A stretch of DNA of 64,000 nucleotides from Candidatus Magasanikiibacteriota bacterium (lineage in GTDB: Bacteria > Patescibacteriota > Patescibacteriia > Magasanikbacterales > GWA2-37-8): assembly GCA_041666745.1 (NCBI GenBank), contig JBAYGI010000001.1:6447-70446 (forward strand), written 5' to 3'. Position 1 is the stretch's first letter. Every line of letters starts with the position of its first letter. The notes below the pieces were generated by a model. It was not told where the DNA came from and did no database searches. It was given only the letters and a program-made list of their open reading frames with translations. Made by a program: the position numbers and the translations under genes. This document shows, piece after piece, positions 22,926 to 61,089 of the stretch.

Positions 22926-24470
22926 ATGACTGAACACAAAACTACATTATTGGTTATTTTAGATGGTTGGGGCATAGAACAAAAAGAAAATACTCTCAAT
23001 CCAATTGTGCCTGAACACGCCCCAAATTATTTTGATTTTCTAAAAAAATATCCCAATACTCAACTACAAGCCAGTGGTGAAGCGGTCGGCTTGTTTAAAG
23101 GACAAGAAGGAAACAGTGAAGCCGGACATATCAATTTGGGGGCTGGTAGAGTAGTAAAGCAAGATGCTTTGTATATTAGCGACGCGATTGCCAATGGAAC
23201 ATTTTTTAAAAACAACGCTTTTCATCAGGCGTTGCATCATGTCAAAAAATACAATACCGCCGTTCATTTGATGGGATTATTGTCCAACCACAATAGTGCT
23301 CATTCCTGTCCGGAACACTTGTATGCTTTGATAGATTTGTTGCATCGAGAAAAAATTAAAAAAGTTTATTTACATTTATTTACCGATGGGCGTGACTCCG
23401 CTCAACATGATGCGGTGCGTCACTTGGAAAATCTGAGGGAACATCTCAAAGGCAATGAAAAAATAGCCACTGTGATAGGGCGTTTGTTTGCTATGGACAG
23501 GAATAAAAATTGGAAAAGAGTGAAGTATGCTTATGAAGCGCTGATACTTGGCAAAGGTATGACCGCCAACGGGGCAGAAGATGCGCTTCTAAAAGCCTAC
23601 AATCGTGGAGAAACAGATGAGTTTGTGGACCCAACTATAATATTGGAAAAGAAAAAACCGGTGGCTACTATCAAAAATAATGATGCGGTAATATTTTTCA
23701 ATTTGCGCAGTGATCGAGCCCGTGAGTTGACCAAAGCATTGGTTCAACCGGATTTTGAAAAAGTAAACCCGGGCGCTTTCAAACGATCACACATGCCAAA
23801 AAATATTCGGTTTGTCGCGTTGACAGATTTTGGCCCGGATCTTCCCGGTGTTTTGACCGCATATCCAAGTTGTGATGTAAAAAATAGTTTGGTGCAAGTT
23901 TTGTGTCCTAAAAAACAATTGTACGTCGCGGAATCAGAAAAATTTGCCCATGTCACTTATTTTTTTAATGGTGGTTATGCGCAACATTTTTGTGATGAAG
24001 ATTGGGTAAGAACACCAACTCCAACCGCTGAAAATTATGAAAATAAACCGGAAATGAATGCCAAAGGAGTGGGAGATAAAGTGGTAGAGGCTATTAAATC
24101 CGGCAAATACGATTTTATTGTTTGTAATTTTGCCAATGCCGACATGGTGGGGCATACTGGCAATTTCAAAGCCGGTCAAGAAGCAATAAAAGTAGTAGAC
24201 GAACAACTCGGTAGAATAGCCCAAGCTTTGACATCGGCCAAGGGCCAGGGTATAATCACAGCCGATCATGGCAATATCGAAGAAATGATGAATATACGAA
24301 CCGGTGGAGTGGATACGGAGCATTCTTTGAATCCGGTGCCGTGTATTATAATCGGATCAGGAGCCAAACAAATTCACAAATCCGGCAAGCTGGCCGACGT
24401 GGCTCCAACATTATTAAAAATGATGGGAGTGGAAAAACCAAAAGAGATGACCGGTAAATCATTAATATAA
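22926..24470 (+). CDS. gpmI: 2,3-bisphosphoglycerate-independent phosphoglycerate mutase (copy 1)
   Basis: LLVILDGWG, the catalytic-Ser region GNSEAGHINLGAGRV, and ADHGN. Confidence 0.9.
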   Translation: MTEHKTTLLVILDGWGIEQKENTLNPIVPEHAPNYFDFLKKYPNTQLQASGEAVGLFKGQEGNSEAGHINLGAGRVVKQDALYISDAIANGTFFKNNAFHQALHHVKKYNTAVHLMGLLSNHNSAHSCPEHLYALIDLLHREKIKKVYLHLFTDGRDSAQHDAVRHLENLREHLKGNEKIATVIGRLFAMDRNKNWKRVKYAYEALILGKGMTANGAEDALLKAYNRGETDEFVDPTIILEKKKPVATIKNNDAVIFFNLRSDRARELTKALVQPDFEKVNPGAFKRSHMPKNIRFVALTDFGPDLPGVLTAYPSCDVKNSLVQVLCPKKQLYVAESEKFAHVTYFFNGGYAQHFCDEDWVRTPTPTAENYENKPEMNAKGVGDKVVEAIKSGKYDFIVCNFANADMVGHTGNFKAGQEAIKVVDEQLGRIAQALTSAKGQGIITADHGNIEEMMNIRTGGVDTEHSLNPVPCIIIGSGAKQIHKSGKLADVAPTLLKMMGVEKPKEMTGKSLI

Positions 24471-24471
24471 T

Positions 24472-26049
24472 ATGGCTTATAAATTAGTAACGTTAGCAAT
24501 TTTTGATGGTTTGGGTGTGGCACCTGATTCGGATGGCAACGCGGTCACTCGCGCTAAAATGCCAAATTTCAAAAATTATATAAAAAATTATCCGGTCATG
24601 ACGGTGTTTGCTTCCGGAAATGAAGTTGGTTTGTCATTTGGTGAAATGGGTAATTCGGAAGTAGGCCATCTCAACATTGGTGCTGGTCGTGTATATTATC
24701 AGTCTTGTCCGCGTATTAATAACGAAATTGGTAACGGTGAATTTTTTAAGAACACGGCTTTTTTGGGCGCGTTGGAACATATCAAAAAAAATAAATCCAA
24801 TTTGCATTTGATCGGACTGCTGGGTATTGGCAATGTTCATGCCAGCGATAGTCATCTGTATGCCTTGTTGGATTTTTGCGCTCAAAACAAATTAGAAAAA
24901 AATGTATTTGTGCATGGGGTGTTGGATGGACGTGATGCCTTGTACAACTCCGGTAAAAATTTCGTGACTGATTTGTTGGCAAAAATGAAAGTGACGAAAG
25001 TTGGACAGATTGCTTCTTTGTCCGGACGTTTTTATGCTTTGGATCGAGACAACCGCTGGGATCGTTGTGAAAAAGCTTATCAGGCAATGGCGCTGGGAAA
25101 AGCAGATAGAAACAGTGATGATCCGTTGAAAATTATAGATGAATCTTATGAACAAAAAAATTACGATGAAGAATTTGTACCGACAGTGATCACCAAGGGT
25201 GGAAAACCGGTAGCCACTATCAAAGAAAATGACGCGGTAATTTTTTTCAATTTTCGTCCGGATCGAGCGCGTGAGTTGACCAAAGCTTTTGTTTTGCCCG
25301 GGTTTAATAAATTCGAAAGAGAATATATAAAAAATTTATTTTTTGTAACCATGACGGAATTTGAAAAAGATTTGCCAGCCGTAGTGGCTTATCCGCCGAT
25401 TGTGGTGCACAATTCGTTGGCTGAAACGGTGAGCAAAGCCGGTAAAAAACAATTTCATGTGGCCGAAACAGAAAAATACGCGCATATCACTTTCTTTTTA
25501 AACGGGACGGTTGAGGAACCATTTGCGGGAGAAGATAGAATGATTGTTCCTTCACCAAAGGTGTCTTCTTATTCTGAAGCGCCGGAAATGTCGGCAGCTT
25601 TGGTATCCAAAGAAGCAGTGAAAGCAATCGATAGTGGAAAATATGATTTGGTCGCTTTGAATTTTGCCAATGCGGATATGGTTGGTCATACTGGTGATTT
25701 GGCAGCTACCATCAAAGGGTGCGAAGCGGCCGATAAAGCTCTAGGTGAAGTGGTTGAGCACACTTTGGCCAAAGGTGGCGTGGTAGTGATAACCGCTGAC
25801 CATGGCAATGCGGAAGAAGTGATAAATTTACAAACTGGCGCAATGGACAAAGAACATTCCACCAATCCGGTGCCATTGTTGGTTGTTGGCAAAGATTTTG
25901 AAGGACAAGCCGGTCCGGCTGGTGAGCCACCCGAGGGGGATTTGAGTTTGATGCATCCAGTCGGGGTGTTGGCCGATGTAGCGCCGACAGTTTTGAGTCT
26001 GATGGGTGTACCACAACCACCGGAAATGACTGGCGCGGCTTTGATTTAA
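24472..26049 (+). CDS. gpmI: 2,3-bisphosphoglycerate-independent phosphoglycerate mutase (copy 2, tandem paralog)
   Basis: LAIFDGLGV, GNSEVGHLNIGAGRV, TADHGN. Motifs are intact in both copies. Confidence 0.9.
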   Translation: MAYKLVTLAIFDGLGVAPDSDGNAVTRAKMPNFKNYIKNYPVMTVFASGNEVGLSFGEMGNSEVGHLNIGAGRVYYQSCPRINNEIGNGEFFKNTAFLGALEHIKKNKSNLHLIGLLGIGNVHASDSHLYALLDFCAQNKLEKNVFVHGVLDGRDALYNSGKNFVTDLLAKMKVTKVGQIASLSGRFYALDRDNRWDRCEKAYQAMALGKADRNSDDPLKIIDESYEQKNYDEEFVPTVITKGGKPVATIKENDAVIFFNFRPDRARELTKAFVLPGFNKFEREYIKNLFFVTMTEFEKDLPAVVAYPPIVVHNSLAETVSKAGKKQFHVAETEKYAHITFFLNGTVEEPFAGEDRMIVPSPKVSSYSEAPEMSAALVSKEAVKAIDSGKYDLVALNFANADMVGHTGDLAATIKGCEAADKALGEVVEHTLAKGGVVVITADHGNAEEVINLQTGAMDKEHSTNPVPLLVVGKDFEGQAGPAGEPPEGDLSLMHPVGVLADVAPTVLSLMGVPQPPEMTGAALI

Positions 26050-27399: not shown

Positions 27400-27981
27400 A
27401 TGAATTCAATGAAAGTACGTACGTGGGGAACGCGAGGTTCGGTGTCTGTCTCTGGTCCGGACAAGGTCCGGTATGGTGGCAACACCACTTGTATTGAGGT
27501 CATCTCGGACTGCATCCAGAAGGGTAACGGTTTGGTGGTGGACGGTGGAACGGGCTTTGTTCCGTGCACCGATTCGCTGTTGGGCCGTGGAATCATGAAG
27601 GTCAACGTCCTGATGACACACGAGCACCATGATCACACCATGGGTATCCCATTGTCCGGCCATCCGTTCATCGACGGCGCTCACACCAGTGTGTGGGGGC
27701 CACACGAGCACGGGGTCGGGCCGTTGGAGATGCTCGAGTACCTGTTCCGTCCTCCAATGTTCCCGGTCGATTTCCGGACACTGAAGCATCGGTTTTCAAC
27801 CCACAATCTGGCGGTGATCGGCACGCAGGTGTTGCTCATTCACCCGATCGGTGGGTTCCAGCTTCATCAGGCGAGCGTGTTCAAACAGGCTGAAGCCACA
27901 GGGCGTCAGCTCACATTCGCGGGTGGCAAGAAGTTCATTTTTTGGGAGTTTTTTTGTTCTTGCAATTTTATCTATATTTAG
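27400..27981 (+). pseudogene. high-GC MBL-fold (RNase Z/ElaC-like) hydrolase gene fragment, 3'-truncated
   Basis: HxHxDH (THEHHDH). LVVDGGTG. AGGAGG RBS 7 nt before the ATG. GC drops back to background near 27940, and the remaining ORF tail (KKFIFWEFFCSCNFIYI) is AT-rich read-through. Confidence 0.6.
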
Positions 27982-34730: not shown

Positions 34731-34814
34731 CACATCTTTACAGCATCTACATACAGGTATAGTATAATTTCTAGGCTTGTTTTGCCGTCTCTAAGGACGG
34801 AAAAGAGAGGGATC

Positions 34815-36032
34815 ATGCGAATTGAGCGACCTATCCGACCAAATTGGCCGGAGCGCAAATGGCCGCGTGTGGCCTTTATTGCACACGCGCTTTTGGACGG
34901 GTATCGCTCAACCGACTTGATCAGTCGACGGTTGGACGAACTCGGGCAAAAGTGGCCCCAGGATGGCGAGGATCCCGGGTTTATCAACTGGTTCTCCTTT
35001 CCTGTCACTCCGGTGGATGGTCAGGGACAGTCGGTGTGGGTTGATTTCTATATCATCCCGGTTCTGGCTGGACAATTTCTGGCTGCCTGCAAGAGCGGGC
35101 AGGCATACGACTGGGCGGAAGCTGTCGCACTCGCCGCGATCGCTGAAGCCAAGGCCGACGGTGTTCACATTACCGTTGGTTGGGGTGCGTTGACGAAAGT
35201 CGCGACTACTCACGGCGCTCGTTTTTTGGAGCGTAATGCGTGGGTGAAGTCCGACGATATGGTTTCGACTACCCATGGTGATGCCGGCACGGCCGCCTTG
35301 GTTCTCGAGACTATCCGTCGAGCTGGTTTCAAGCGAGGTTTTCGCGTTGCGGTGATTGGTGCCAACGGCGCCATCGGTGACGCGATTTCACGTTTGCTTC
35401 CTTCGCTTTCTCCTGAGAGCATCTTGCTCGTGGGGAAGGGCGGAGAGGTGAATGCCTCCCGCTTGAACGAATTGCGCGCGCGGGTGTTTGGTGGTGGTGA
35501 TCGAGTCGCCATTCACCAAGACAAATCGAGCGCGTGTCATGATCACCGGAGCGATTTGGTGATCATCGCGACTACCGGTATGGATATCGCTCCGAGCGAA
35601 ATCCCGTTGGGCGCACTCGTGCTCGACATGACAACTCCGTCTGCGTGCCACGCCAATAGCGAATGGCAGAATAACCGGTTGGTTCTAGCTTCCGGGTGTG
35701 GTCGGTTCGCCGATCGTGCCGTGAAGGAATCTTTCGGTCAATTCGGCGGCGAGTTGCTCGCGGACGTTGGAGCTGGCGGTCACCATGTGTTGTGGGGGTG
35801 CGCCGGCGAGACCATTACGCGAGCGGTCGCTGAATGGCACGGACACGTGGCTGGCACCAATATCCCTCTCGGGGATATCCAGTGGTGCGACAGTCATTTT
35901 CCGGAGCTGGGTTTCGCCCCCCAGTTGCCAGTCTCATTCGGGAGGAGTCTCGACTGGTCGGACGTGCACGCTTTCGTCGAGCGTTCACAAAAAAGAATTT
36001 CGGTGCAGGCGTCGCAACACCTTCACCAGTAA
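34815..36032 (+). CDS. high-GC Rossmann-fold NAD(P)-binding oxidoreductase-like protein (foreign composition)
   Basis: GC is far above the flanks. VAVIGANGAIGDAISRLL is a GxGxxG-type dinucleotide-binding motif. A TATAAT-like element is at about 34768 and a GAGAGGG RBS precedes ATG 34815; the ORF-track start at 34782 is also possible. Family is unassigned. Confidence 0.6.
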   Translation: MRIERPIRPNWPERKWPRVAFIAHALLDGYRSTDLISRRLDELGQKWPQDGEDPGFINWFSFPVTPVDGQGQSVWVDFYIIPVLAGQFLAACKSGQAYDWAEAVALAAIAEAKADGVHITVGWGALTKVATTHGARFLERNAWVKSDDMVSTTHGDAGTAALVLETIRRAGFKRGFRVAVIGANGAIGDAISRLLPSLSPESILLVGKGGEVNASRLNELRARVFGGGDRVAIHQDKSSACHDHRSDLVIIATTGMDIAPSEIPLGALVLDMTTPSACHANSEWQNNRLVLASGCGRFADRAVKESFGQFGGELLADVGAGGHHVLWGCAGETITRAVAEWHGHVAGTNIPLGDIQWCDSHFPELGFAPQLPVSFGRSLDWSDVHAFVERSQKRISVQASQHLHQ

Positions 36033-36078
36033 CACCAAGCTGTCTTTTGACGGCGGGAGGTTCAAAATGCCAATAGGC

Positions 36079-36117
36079 ACACCCCGGGTTCGCAAGATCC
36101 GGGGTGTCTGCTTTTTA
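36079..36117 (+). terminator. GC-rich rho-independent terminator of the high-GC island
   Basis: acaccccgg/ccggggtgt stem followed by ctgcttttt. Confidence 0.75.
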
Positions 36118-36125
36118 TATGAAGT

Positions 36126-36143
36126 TTTTTGTGGTATAATATA
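36126..36143 (+). promoter_or_regulatory. extended -10 promoter (same TTTTTGTGGTATAATATA motif as pgk)
   Basis: TGGTATAAT ending at 36140. The ATG is at 36162. Confidence 0.5.
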
Positions 36144-36161
36144 CAAAGAATTAAAAATTTT

Positions 36162-37778
36162 ATGTTTGATTTTTATACCACCCTACCATTAACCTGTAGT
36201 TTGTTCGGTTTATTTTTTGGATTATTTGTTTTATTTCAAAATTATAAATCGCGCATGAACCAATTGTTGTTTGCTTTTAATGTAAGTATGTTGTTTTGGA
36301 TGTTTGGCACATTTATGATGTTTTGGTCACGTGGTAATATGTCGGCGGCACTTTTTTGGGATAGATTTGTATACATTGGGGTGGTATTTATGCCACCTTT
36401 GATGCATCATTTTAGTTTGGTTTTCACCCAACAAACCAACAAACAAAAAGGACTGTTGATAGTCAACTATCTTTTGGCCTTTTCTTTTTTATTTTTGAGT
36501 CAAACTCCTTATTTTGTTGATGGTCTTTATTATTATTCTTGGGGTGTGCATAGTCAGGCGCGGATTTTGCATACCATATTTTTAGGGTATTTTTTCTTGG
36601 GCACAGGATTATTTTTTGCCAATGTTTTTAGATATTTCTTAAAAATTAAAGAAAAAATTATTCGTTTGCAAACCATTTATGTTTTTATTGCTTTTGCGAT
36701 CGTAATTTTTATTGGTGGTTCGGCTTATTTGTTTGCTTATCACATTGATACTAAGTTTCCTTTTGCTTATGTTTCCGGATTAATTTTTCCAGTCATGTTG
36801 TTTTATGCCGTTAGTCGTTATCATTTGTTTGGTAAAAAAATAGTAGCGACCGAGGTGTTGGTGGGATTGGCGGAATTTTTTGTGGTGATGGATATTTTCT
36901 TTTCACAAAGTTTAAAAGATGTTTTGCTGAGGGTTGTTTTCGCGATGATTGTGGCTGTAATTGGGGTATTTTTGATTCGATCAGTTCGCAAAGAAATACA
37001 ACGTCGTGAAGAAATTACCAAGTTGGCCGATTCTCTGGAACAAGCCAATCTTCGTTTGCAAGAATTGGACAAACAAAAAACCGAATTCCTTTCCATTGCC
37101 TCTCACCAATTGCGCACACCACTTTCGATTTTAAAAGGTTATATCGAATTGATCAAAGACGGTGGTTATGGCAAAATTACCAAAGACACCAAACAGATTT
37201 TGAATAATATGGATGAGAGCAATGAGCACCTGATCAAATTGGTGGATGATTTTTTGAACATATCGCGCATCGAACAAGGTCGTACCAAATATGATTTTAA
37301 AAATTTTAATTTATCTCACACGGTAGATGGAATATTATTTGAGTTGTGTAAACGCGCGCAGGACAAAGGTTTGAAATGCGAGTGGCACAACGGCACCGTT
37401 TTTGAAATTGTTGGTGATGAAGAAAAAATCCGGCACGTATTATTCAATTTTGTGGATAATGCTATCAAATATTCTGAAAATGGTAAGATTAAAATTAATC
37501 TAAAAGCGGATAATGATGGTGTGAATGTGACTGTGAGTGATCGAGGATTTGGTTTCGGAAAAGTGGATGAAGCGAATTTTTTCCAAAAATTTTATCGTGG
37601 TGAAAATGTTAAAAATACCAATGTTACCGGTACCGGTTTGGGATTGTATGTTTGTCGTAAATTTATTGAGGCGCATGGTGGAAAAGTTTGGGCGCATAGC
37701 TCGGGGCTCGGTAAAGGTAGTGAATTTGGCTTTTGGTTGCCATTAAAACCACCAGACACAGTTTCCGGAAAAGTTTAA
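36162..37778 (+). CDS. sensor histidine kinase with polytopic N-terminal membrane domain
   Basis: Six to seven TM helices. H-box ASHQLRTPLSILKGY. HATPase G-boxes (GTGLGLYVCRKFIEAHGG). The ORF-track TTG at 36129 lies in the promoter. No cognate response regulator is adjacent. Confidence 0.85.
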   Translation: MFDFYTTLPLTCSLFGLFFGLFVLFQNYKSRMNQLLFAFNVSMLFWMFGTFMMFWSRGNMSAALFWDRFVYIGVVFMPPLMHHFSLVFTQQTNKQKGLLIVNYLLAFSFLFLSQTPYFVDGLYYYSWGVHSQARILHTIFLGYFFLGTGLFFANVFRYFLKIKEKIIRLQTIYVFIAFAIVIFIGGSAYLFAYHIDTKFPFAYVSGLIFPVMLFYAVSRYHLFGKKIVATEVLVGLAEFFVVMDIFFSQSLKDVLLRVVFAMIVAVIGVFLIRSVRKEIQRREEITKLADSLEQANLRLQELDKQKTEFLSIASHQLRTPLSILKGYIELIKDGGYGKITKDTKQILNNMDESNEHLIKLVDDFLNISRIEQGRTKYDFKNFNLSHTVDGILFELCKRAQDKGLKCEWHNGTVFEIVGDEEKIRHVLFNFVDNAIKYSENGKIKINLKADNDGVNVTVSDRGFGFGKVDEANFFQKFYRGENVKNTNVTGTGLGLYVCRKFIEAHGGKVWAHSSGLGKGSEFGFWLPLKPPDTVSGKV

Positions 37779-39134: not shown

Positions 39135-39217
39135 GCCCAGGTGGCGAAATGGTAGACGCACTACCTTGAGGTGGTAGCGGCCGCAAGGCCATGGAAGTTC
39201 AACTCTTCTCCTGGGCA
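39135..39217 (+). tRNA. tRNA-Leu (anticodon GAG)
   Basis: Acceptor stem GCCCAGG/CCTGGGC with discriminator A. Anticodon arm CTACC-TTGAGGT-GGTAG. Long variable arm (GGCCGCAAGGCC). T-arm GGAAGTTCAACTCTTCC. 83 nt, and CCA is not encoded. Confidence 0.85.
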
Positions 39218-39231
39218 CTTAAAAATAATAT

Positions 39232-50559: not shown

Positions 50560-50755
50560 ACCCCCCTTGACAACCCAAGGGGGTTTTGGTATAGTGATTG
50601 CACCATAGACAGCAGGTGGCGAAAGCCTTAATTACCTGCCGAGGTACAAAAACTAATACTGGATTCCCACTTTCGTGGGAATGACAGTGTAGGAAGTCGA
50701 TTTGTACTGTATTATACGTCTGTGGAAACACAGATTTTTTTGTTAAAAAATCGTT
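50560..50755 (+). promoter_or_regulatory. ribosomal protein L10 leader (rplJL autoregulatory 5' UTR)
   Basis: Structured region directly upstream of rplJ (ccccccttgacaacccaagggggtt hairpin and others). It contains one palindromic-repeat copy. Confidence 0.5.
50660..50685. repeat. palindromic element within the L10 leader
   Basis: ggattcccactttcgtgggaatgaca. Confidence 0.65.
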
Positions 50756-60546: not shown

Positions 60547-61089
60547 TCATTCGCACCTCCGAAAGAACTTTTTGCCGAGTTTCTGCGCCAGATCCGCCAT
60601 GCGGTTGGTGCGTTCGACATCGGCTGTTGTTTGAGAGCGGGCGACGCGCAACTGTGCGATTCGCTCGCGGATTTCTGCGGTGGTCGCGGATGTGTCGGTT
60701 AGGGTAATGTAGCCCAACATGTGGGCTGCATGAATCCCTACCTCGCCACCGTGGCCGTGTATATCCGACCAGATTTTCAACGCCATTTTCTGGGCGCTGA
60801 TATCTCCGGTTATCCGCCACCATATGAACAGTAGGTTGGCCAACATGTTTTTGGCCTCACCATCCTTGAGCGTTGCTGTCACGCTCATTTCCTCCAGAAA
60901 TTTTAAGCCTCCGTACCGCTCCATGACCGTCATGGCGGCTTTTTCGCGTCCGTCGCTGATGAGGTTCGTCACCATGTTTTGGACGAACTCCAGCTTCGCA
61001 AGGTCTGCGATCATATTGCCCTCCGCAAGCTGTAAATGCACAGCACTGGCAAAACAGTTGATATTATCAGGTCTGTTAAGTTTTGTCAA
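60547..61089 (-). CDS. GC-elevated hypothetical protein (180 aa; foreign composition)
   Basis: GC is clearly above the flanks. TTG start at 61089 or ATG at 61014. No recognisable motif (HGHGGEVGIHAAHMLGY). Confidence 0.45.
   Translation of the reverse strand: MTKLNRPDNINCFASAVHLQLAEGNMIADLAKLEFVQNMVTNLISDGREKAAMTVMERYGGLKFLEEMSVTATLKDGEAKNMLANLLFIWWRITGDISAQKMALKIWSDIHGHGGEVGIHAAHMLGYITLTDTSATTAEIRERIAQLRVARSQTTADVERTNRMADLAQKLGKKFFRRCE

Follow-up and report, generated by a model that had tools for sequence, protein, structure and literature searches.

The gene considered here, referred to below as the reductase gene, lies between pyrD and a histidine kinase gene in a 64,000-nucleotide (nt) stretch of a Candidatus Magasanikiibacteriota genome (GenBank assembly GCA_041666745.1, contig JBAYGI010000001.1; the whole stretch is hereafter called the window) and forms a sharply bounded, GC-rich island in an AT-rich neighborhood. 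It is a native gene of vertical descent, with a constant place on the chromosome immediately ahead of the gene for a 7TM histidine kinase, and its product represents an uncharacterised, small subfamily, almost restricted to the Candidate Phyla Radiation (CPR), of the superfamily that unites acyl-ACP reductase (AAR; ACP, acyl carrier protein), the terminal amidation domain (TAD) and the N-terminal domain of PigE (AAR/TAD/PigE-N). The reading preferred for the whole, held with somewhat better than even confidence, is that of a native AAR/TAD/PigE-N-like gene, passed on vertically, whose GC excess would be maintained by selection on the mRNA or the coding DNA. The enzyme joins a superfamily that is already known; the persistence of its composition is the part worth following up.

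Position and inheritance of the reductase gene

An ortholog occupies the same position in every related locus for which flanking sequence is available, that is, in more than 20 loci from independent assemblies, whose contexts were collected by exact protein look-up, a GTDB genome scan and a metagenome scan. The gene order in all CPR loci, that of the deep-branching P0059 included, is ValRS-TyrRS-ArgRS-(pyrD)-(antitoxin/PemK)-reductase gene-HisKA_7TM kinase-bactofilin-DAGK. The kinase, which is found directly 3' of the ortholog in every CPR locus with flanks, served as a comparator for vertical inheritance, and the pairwise protein distances of the two genes are correlated (Mantel r 0.74, a value reached in 3 of 5000 permutations). 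A word-indexed search returned 42 homologs at 38-74% identity, those with a named source being labeled Magasanikbacteria or Patescibacteria; among 1.84 billion cluster representatives, 35 clusters match at E <=1e-30, followed by a gap and then by the broad superfamily (757 at E <=1e-3). The identical protein and the contig of ~222 kb are present in assemblies from JGI, Logan, NCBI and ENA.

The GC excess in the window and across the lineage

The window has a mean GC of 39%, and the GC fraction reaches 0.58 in 35001-36000 vs 0.33-0.37 in the adjoining 500-nt bins. The reductase gene itself has a GC content of 58.1%, with 0.63, 0.49 and 0.62 at the first, second and third codon positions (GC1, GC2 and GC3), as against about 0.42, 0.30 and 0.34 in argS, pyrD and the downstream kinase (35-37% GC overall in pyrD and the kinase). 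Of the 58 open reading frames (ORFs) in the window that are 100 aa or longer, only three have a GC3 of 0.62 or more, namely 27400-27981 (island 1), the reductase gene and 60547-61089 (island 3); the other 55 range from 0.19 to 0.49, and the reductase gene lies +5.2 residual standard deviations off the relation of GC1+2 to GC3 in these ordinary ORFs.

The same excess accompanies the gene throughout the lineage. In 16 of 16 GTDB CPR loci, the gene has 50-65% GC and its flanks 36-46%, the gene being higher by 10 to 27 points, and in each of the 19 loci scored GC3 exceeds the mean of the flanks (z as high as 15). The gene follows the GC of its host with an offset, such that in locus L039 it has 42% GC vs 30% in the flanks. 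The mean profile of 16 loci shows a GC plateau that starts ~40 nt ahead of the start codon, stays flat at 0.55-0.58 along the coding sequence (CDS) and ends ~80 nt past the stop codon, where GC drops to 0.23; since the rise and fall lie at -40 nt and +80 nt of the CDS, the limits of the plateau match those of the transcription unit. With base composition factored out, the tetranucleotide signature of the gene is host-like (0.43 +/- 0.09 vs 0.48 +/- 0.09 for background against background). Identity at fourfold sites between distant orthologs (0.30-0.32, vs 0.27 expected at saturation) is similar to that of the flanking genes. The atypical composition and codon usage are real, yet they are common to all orthologs and are thus not, on their own, diagnostic of recent acquisition.

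At the level of codons, the gene differs from the background most strongly at A/T-prefixed codons, as in AAG (0.64 vs 0.15), GAG (0.58 vs 0.21), TTC (0.53 vs 0.13), ATC (0.65 vs 0.22), CTC (0.27 vs 0.04) and TTA (0 vs 0.24), whereas the Ala, Gly, Pro and Thr families barely differ. The protein is enriched in Ala, Gly, Arg, Trp and His and depleted in Lys, Asn, Tyr and Ile. Measured in 17 loci, the logit shift in GC3 is graded by codon context: +0.54 in GC-prefixed fourfold codons, +1.08 in mixed fourfold codons, and, among twofold A/T-prefixed codons, +1.30 in Y-ending and +1.47 in R-ending ones. As a side observation, CTC, which makes up 27% of the Leu codons in the gene vs 4% in the background, is the best-read codon of tRNA-Leu(GAG), encoded at 39135-39218, 3 kb downstream of the gene.

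Three simpler explanations of the elevated GC3 were considered and rejected. A by-product of amino-acid composition is at odds with the correlation between GC1+2 and GC3 over the 55 ordinary genes (r -0.05), and ordinary translational selection with the GC3 of 0.32-0.42 in the genes for S2, EF-Ts, L10, enolase and GAPDH in the window. Avoidance of MazF-type motifs, prompted by the PemK gene upstream in relatives, was likewise discarded, no ACA- or UAC-type k-mer being depleted beyond synonymous shuffles; the k-mers that are depleted (CCC, CCT, GGG, TTA, TAA and TAG) are generic.

The other GC-rich islands

Island 3 (60547-61089, minus strand) is an ORFan of ~155-180 aa with four family members among 5.8 billion proteins. 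Its orthologs (L049 853-1317 and L050 63-524) are 73% and 57% identical, have the same flanking genes, and show GC3 values of 0.70 and 0.64 vs 0.33-0.41 in their flanks. It is therefore a second persistently GC-rich, vertically inherited, syntenic gene, and the phenomenon recurs in a gene unrelated to the first. Island 1 (27400-27981) encodes a truncated metallo-beta-lactamase (MBL)-fold protein resembling PF12706, with a THEHHDH motif and 193 aa vs ~300 aa for PF12706 relatives; its high GC ends abruptly near 27940, beyond which the reading frame continues into AT-rich sequence. The nearest relatives of island 1 are at most 52% identical, some of them labeled Omnitrophica, Binatia or Spirochaetes, and the related genomes examined have no counterpart of it at the junction of the DHH gene and ValRS. 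It is probably a decaying, lineage-specific acquisition.

The three islands thus have different histories. The earlier note on this DNA, which was made from the sequence alone, had raised the possibility of a common donor, and this idea found no support in the composition-corrected tetranucleotide signatures, which are mutually no closer (correlations of 0.32-0.51 between islands) than they are to the host background (0.31-0.43). Further single-ORF outliers in GC3 occur in L016 (2037-2405, minus strand, 0.75) and L019 (2185-2685, plus strand, 0.73), where the locus mean is 0.45; neither is homologous to island 1 or 3, and their occurrence suggests that GC-rich singletons are common in the Magasanikbacteria lineage.

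Enzyme family and predicted chemistry

Direct searches placed the protein poorly. A Pfam scan returned nothing above threshold (best ApbA, E 0.019), and a single-sequence search of the PDB gave no match, nor did a PADLOC scan for defense systems match the gene. Among the NCBIfam models, the PigE N-domain (NF053554) matches residues 21-397 with 44.8 bits (E 5.7e-12), and the acyl-ACP reductase model TIGR04058 gives a weak, partial match (16.6 bits, residues 101-276). Assignment to either equivalog was rejected, the cut-offs being 850 bits for NF053554 and 449.7 bits for TIGR04058; in addition, the match to PigE covers the N-domain only in a 405-aa protein without a transaminase domain, and an aldehyde-deformylating oxygenase (ADO) partner, expected of AAR, is missing from the CPR loci.

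More was gained from an alignment of 39 homologs (A1), on which both the list of invariant residues and an AlphaFold2 model were based. Invariant in A1 are the Rossmann motif G182-x-x-G185-x-x-G188, the segments W327-G328-C329 and G122-W-G124-A125-x-T-K128, the cysteine C278, and T153-H154-G155-D156, which is mostly preceded by a further T and stands ahead of the Rossmann domain, as expected of the junction motif of the superfamily. The dinucleotide-binding motif, VAVIGANGAIGDAISRLL, comprises residues 178-195. The model (pLDDT 92.6, pTM 0.91) has the two-domain fold of the superfamily, that is, an N-terminal alpha/beta macrodomain-like part and a dehydrogenase-like Rossmann C-terminal part, and in it Cys329 opens a helix (328-338). 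Two groups of structures head the Foldseek results against the PDB, both over the full length with E 6e-16 to 1e-14 and TM-scores of 0.61-0.75: cyanobacterial AAR (6jzu, 6jzq, 6jzy and 6jzz; for 6jzu, E 6e-16 and TMt 0.74) and the TAD of carmabin biosynthesis (9e4s, 9e4x, 9e4u, 9e50 and 9e56; for 9e4x, E 1e-15). The next tier (MtdA and shikimate dehydrogenases) begins at E 3e-7, which leaves a gap of ~8 orders of magnitude to generic Rossmann dehydrogenases. Searched against the PDB, the A1 profile finds PigE (4ppm; E 1e-4, residues 108-395) and AAR (E 1.5e-3), while the profile of the Rossmann region matches malate dehydrogenases (E 5e-6). The earlier note had recognized a Rossmann-type oxidoreductase, as the GxGxxG motif and the Foldseek matches to AAR and TAD bear out; it could not name a specific family, and the protein is here placed in the AAR/TAD/PigE-N superfamily.

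The stand-alone AAR (6JZU/6JZQ/6JZY; TIGR04058) is the best structural match. Both proteins join an N-terminal alpha/beta domain to a Rossmann domain with GxGxxG, and the invariant Cys of the reductase family opens a helix past the Rossmann core, in the place that the catalytic Cys294 takes in AAR. The reductase protein is, however, 16-18% identical to AAR and ~65 residues longer (405 vs 341 aa), and it occurs in CPR hosts, in whose loci neither an ADO partner nor a homolog of HDO (a di-iron oxidase) was found in any case examined. CPR bacteria are generally thought to lack fatty-acid synthesis. The TAD of CarI (carmabin; 9E4S/9E4X) matches as well (E 1e-15, TMq 0.66 over ~400 columns, ~400 aa), also has an invariant Cys beside the nicotinamide site, and carries a conserved Thr-rich junction motif, to which the invariant T-H-G-D of the reductase family may correspond. 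TAD differs in being the last domain of a nonribosomal peptide synthetase/polyketide synthase (NRPS/PKS) module that receives its substrate from a fused peptidyl carrier protein (PCP) (10.1101/2024.10.28.620694), whereas the reductase protein stands alone, and neither a carrier protein nor an NRPS is encoded nearby in the loci examined. It differs also in binding NAD via an Asp, whereas the reductase family has a basic residue (Lys or Arg, in LVGK/R) at the end of strand beta-2, which suggests NADPH as the cofactor. At the level of sequence, the best match is the PigE N-domain of the prodigiosin MAP pathway (NF053554; 4PPM), in whose alignment vlWGCtletia pairs with qLNGCMAETIV, so that Cys329 falls on the cysteine of the PigE 'NGC'; PigE (PMC8341465) is nevertheless an 837-861-aa fusion to a pyridoxal phosphate (PLP)-dependent aminotransferase, of which the reductase protein has no counterpart, fused or adjacent.

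Work on TAD has described the superfamily as a macrodomain-like N-terminal domain joined to a dehydrogenase-like C-terminal domain, with an invariant Cys (AAR Cys294, TAD Cys2238) at a helix start beside the nicotinamide; this catalytic Cys sits in the inter-domain cleft and is contacted by a conserved junction motif of the Thr-Thr-Gly type (10.1101/2024.10.28.620694). AAR works by a ping-pong mechanism, in which the Cys first accepts the acyl group of acyl-ACP and NADPH then reduces that group to an aldehyde (10.1101/2024.10.28.620694), and PigE has been reported to reduce a thioester to an aldehyde (PMC8341465). By analogy with both, thioester reduction mediated by Cys329 is the likely chemistry of the reductase protein: the invariant Cys329 would take over the acyl group of a phosphopantetheine thioester, either acyl-ACP or acyl-CoA, and NAD(P)H bound in the Rossmann domain would reduce the resulting acyl-enzyme, with release of the aldehyde. 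A literature search for AAR-like enzymes in Patescibacteria, or for GC-rich genes in Magasanikbacteria or the CPR, found nothing relevant.

Origin and maintenance of the GC excess

Outside the CPR, the closest relatives come from very GC-rich bacteria. P0048 (L051 402-2687) is 49% identical over its full length and lies on a contig of 72.6% GC, with a GC3 of 0.93 in the gene; P0067 is encoded on a 255-kb contig, also of 72.6% GC (GCA_051747385.1), whose composition the gene matches, and in L051 and L052, both of 72.6% GC, the GC of the gene equals that of the genome. The composition of more distant non-CPR homologs (~27% identity) likewise matches that of their own genomes. The gene probably entered the lineage long ago from, or has a common origin with, such very GC-rich bacteria. 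P0048 is, in addition, fused to a C-terminal Haem_oxygenas_2 domain (a heme-oxygenase-like di-iron oxidase), which recalls the AAR-ADO pair; in the Rosetta-stone sense, this fusion hints that reductase and oxygenase chemistry may be coupled, much as in AAR and ADO.

Under the preferred reading, the GC excess is most likely no remnant of a foreign composition but is actively maintained by selection that acts on the mRNA or the coding DNA and disfavors A/T-rich codons; the candidate targets are mRNA stability against AU-directed RNases and a throttling of translation by rare codons. The main rival is a single ancient transfer from a very GC-rich donor into the ancestor of Magasanikbacteria, followed by slow, incomplete amelioration with no maintaining force, which we regard as unlikely. 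It would account for the 49%-identical relatives in organisms of 72.6% GC (GC3 0.84-0.93), whose genes match their genomes, for the GC-type amino-acid composition that the protein retains, and for the gene GC3 that differs among lineages and falls where host GC is lowest (L039). Its quantitative consequences were examined through f, the excess identity at twofold synonymous sites, the deviation retained per lineage being taken as the square root of f. Between the window (W) and L004, f = 0.20, and pure decay would need an ancestral twofold GC3 of 1.04-1.19; between W and L008, f = 0.06, and the value needed is 1.77; deep pairs require more than 1 or an infinite value. A GC3 of ~1 or more would thus have been needed already at the shallow node of W, L004 and L008, and a still higher one at the deeper splits (L015, L037 and L054), which post-date the acquisition. 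Because the required ancestral GC3 is ~1 or more, and because these deeper syntenic splits followed the acquisition, an import with decay only is strongly disfavored. Moreover, GC3 in the flanks has moved over 0.18-0.54 among the lineages, which implies fast relaxation on the same timescale, the oligonucleotide signature of the gene is already host-like, the shift depends on codon context instead of being the same throughout, and the unrelated ORFan of island 3 is equally persistent.

A locus-specific neutral process, whether GC-biased gene conversion (gBGC) at a recombination hotspot or a mutational regime linked to transcription, is improbable. It agrees with a GC excess at synonymous sites whose individual positions are not conserved beyond the ordinary, fourfold identity being about that of the flanking genes, and a transcription-linked process would predict the coincidence of the plateau with the transcription unit. 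A uniform weak-to-strong (W-to-S) bias, however, predicts equal logit shifts, whereas +0.54 is seen in one codon class and +1.3 to +1.5 in others; conversion tracts would not be expected to respect CDS boundaries in at least 16 lineages; and the highly expressed genes of the window remain at a GC3 of 0.32-0.42. The effects attributed to gBGC in bacteria are also far smaller than the GC3 difference of +0.25 to +0.43 seen here.

Recent horizontal gene transfer (HGT), contaminant DNA or a chimeric assembly, as considered in the earlier note, is very improbable. What speaks for it is the sharp step of ~20 GC points, confined to 1.3 kb that carry their own promoter-like element and terminator. The step recurs, however, at the same position in the more than 20 independently assembled Magasanikbacteria loci, and homologs of the same position and the same composition in related genomes were what that note had named as evidence for a native gene. 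The identical protein and contig in several assembly sources, and nearest non-CPR relatives that are only 49% identical, also count against an import. As for mobility, only chance AT-rich direct repeats flank the gene, no integrase or tRNA target lies near it (the nearest tRNA, 3 kb off, is unrelated), and searches for plasmid and phage similarity gave no match to the segment. Since the orthologs share both position and GC excess, recent HGT, contamination and chimerism can be set aside. Lawrence and Ochman reportedly formulated the amelioration model for compositionally atypical islands acquired by HGT. The reductase gene resembles such islands in its sharp GC step, its atypical codon usage and its being a single, self-contained gene, but differs from them in occupying the same site in all relatives, in diverging along with its neighbors, in the absence of mobility signatures, and in a composition that has not relaxed although the synonymous sites have turned over. 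It is also GC-rich in an AT-rich genome, whereas genes that stand out by their composition are more often AT-rich.

That the high GC serves another function within the CDS, as a structured RNA or as a gene read in antisense or in an alternative frame, is scarcely credible: both strands of the CDS contain several further ORFs of 80-140 aa, but, in keeping with the earlier note's view of them as spurious by-products of the high GC, they are no longer than synonymous-codon shuffles give, the stop-free runs in the five alternative frames match such shuffles in 18 orthologs with none consistently open, synonymous sites are not specially conserved, and no Rfam family matches within the segment.

The preferred reading, that of a native superfamily member whose GC excess is maintained by selection, has points against it as well. 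The elevation is uneven, gene GC3 varying from 0.30 to 0.76 among lineages with z of only 0.9-1.6 in L008, L012, L016, L019 and L023. The paired t tests of the twofold codons against the GC-prefixed class (p = 1.6e-6 for Y-ending and 2.8e-8 for R-ending) treat loci that are phylogenetically non-independent, so that these p values are optimistic, and no specific avoided motif emerged from the k-mer test against synonymous shuffles. In the amelioration test, each pair contributes 30-90 sites, with wide confidence intervals on the residual synonymous identity; at the upper 95% bound of f, the required minima fall to 0.7-1.0, which are not all impossible, a donor GC3 of 0.93 just sufficing for single pairs. 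The neighbor-joining tree is star-like at depth and gives neither a direction nor a date for any transfer to or from GC-rich bacteria. With regard to the enzyme, scores far below the equivalog cut-offs leave support for membership of the AAR/TAD/PigE-N superfamily and only that; the equivalence of Cys329 to AAR Cys294 is read from the alignment to PigE and from the place of the residue at the start of a helix; and TAD, an equally good structural match, is without demonstrated reductase activity and may not be a reductase (10.1101/2024.10.28.620694).

A broader proposal, which is offered tentatively and with less than even confidence, is that Magasanikbacteria compositionally 'insulate' a few unrelated core genes, at least the reductase gene and the ORFan at 60547-61089, through selection acting on the transcription unit that would keep GC3 25-40 points higher than in the rest of the genome, mainly by avoidance of A/T-rich codons, and would do so across order-level divergence. 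The purpose may be resistance of the mRNA to AU-directed RNases or toxins (PemK/MazF is encoded upstream in most relatives) or a throttling of translation.

Organization of the locus

The features of the locus are collected in Table 1. The GC step, ORF, motif, upstream signals, terminator and neighbors were all found where the earlier note had placed them, and its view of a self-contained unit is supported by the promoter-like element, the Shine-Dalgarno-like sequence and the terminator. The ORF was listed by the program as 34782-36032; the ATG at 34815 is the true start, since the N-terminus MRIERPxRP.W that follows from it aligns with all orthologs. Judged from these signals in the DNA, the reductase gene appears to be a small, monocistronic transcription unit of its own. 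The putative promoter, a consensus match, falls in the 85-nt spacer between pyrD and the reductase gene. Counts of promoter-like and terminator-like sites in the region show no excess over shuffles, and the terminator convinces by its strength and its position, 46 nt past the stop codon, rather than by statistics.

Table 1. Features in and around the reductase gene (positions in the window).
Feature	Positions	Strand	Description and basis
pyrD (upstream neighbor)	ends 34730		
Promoter-like element	34737-34768	+	TTTACA (34737-34742), 17-nt spacer, TAGTAT (34760-34765); sigma-70-like, 9 of 12 consensus matches in scan
TATAGTATAAT	34758-34768	+	Perfect TATAAT (34763-34768) overlapping TAGTAT; read from sequence
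5' leader hairpin	34785-34800	+	CCGTC-TCTAAG-GACGG; read from sequence
Shine-Dalgarno-like GAGAGGG	34805-34811	+	3 nt before ATG; read from sequence
CDS of AAR/TAD/PigE-N-like two-domain enzyme	34815-36032	+	405 aa plus TAA stop; ORF list and ortholog alignment
Intrinsic terminator	36079-36117	+	ACACCCCGGGTT-CGCAA-GATCCGGGGTGT then CTGCTTTTT; 12-bp stem (7 GC pairs) 36079-36107, 5-nt loop, T tail to 36117; structure scan
HisKA_7TM / HisKA / HATPase_c histidine kinase	36129-37778	+	Start ~36129-36159; normal low GC, outside the island; Pfam

The region upstream of the gene varies among relatives. In most of them, an antitoxin and PemK/MazF pair lies directly upstream of the reductase gene (L001 9323-9899, L004 9393-9974 and L054 5338-5985), whereas the window has the 85-nt spacer (34731-34814) instead and no PemK homolog in its 64 kb; pyrD stands upstream only in the closest genome cluster. 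Several of the GTDB representative metagenome-assembled genomes (MAGs) used here (L011 and L013-L019) bear the title 'uncultured Gammaproteobacteria bacterium' and have full Magasanikbacteria synteny and 36-44% GC, and these titles are probably placeholder mislabels. Elsewhere in the window, an L10 leader (RF00557, 68.6 bits) is found at 50585-50749, upstream of rplJ, and two paralogs of cofactor-independent phosphoglycerate mutase (iPGM) stand in tandem (22926-24470 and 24472-26049), with iPGM-like N-termini MTEHKTTLLVILDGWG and MAYKLVTLAIFDGLG; this duplication is present in L006 too.

Implications

The reductase gene is a counter-example to the practice of inferring recent HGT or contamination in MAGs from GC content or codon usage, given that an island of 20 GC points proves to be a core syntenic gene. 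Its product also marks out an uncharacterised subfamily, almost confined to the CPR, within the AAR/TAD/PigE-N superfamily of thioester reductases, and the P0048 fusion is suggestive of lipid or metabolite chemistry based on aldehydes in organisms thought to be nearly devoid of lipid biosynthesis. If the broader proposal of compositional insulation is true, it would imply gene-specific selection on nucleotide composition at a logit shift of ~1-2, a magnitude normally associated only with the codon bias of highly expressed genes. Finally, if the GC excess is actively maintained, this locus and island 3 would provide a tractable natural system for the study of selection on composition in AT-rich, reduced genomes.

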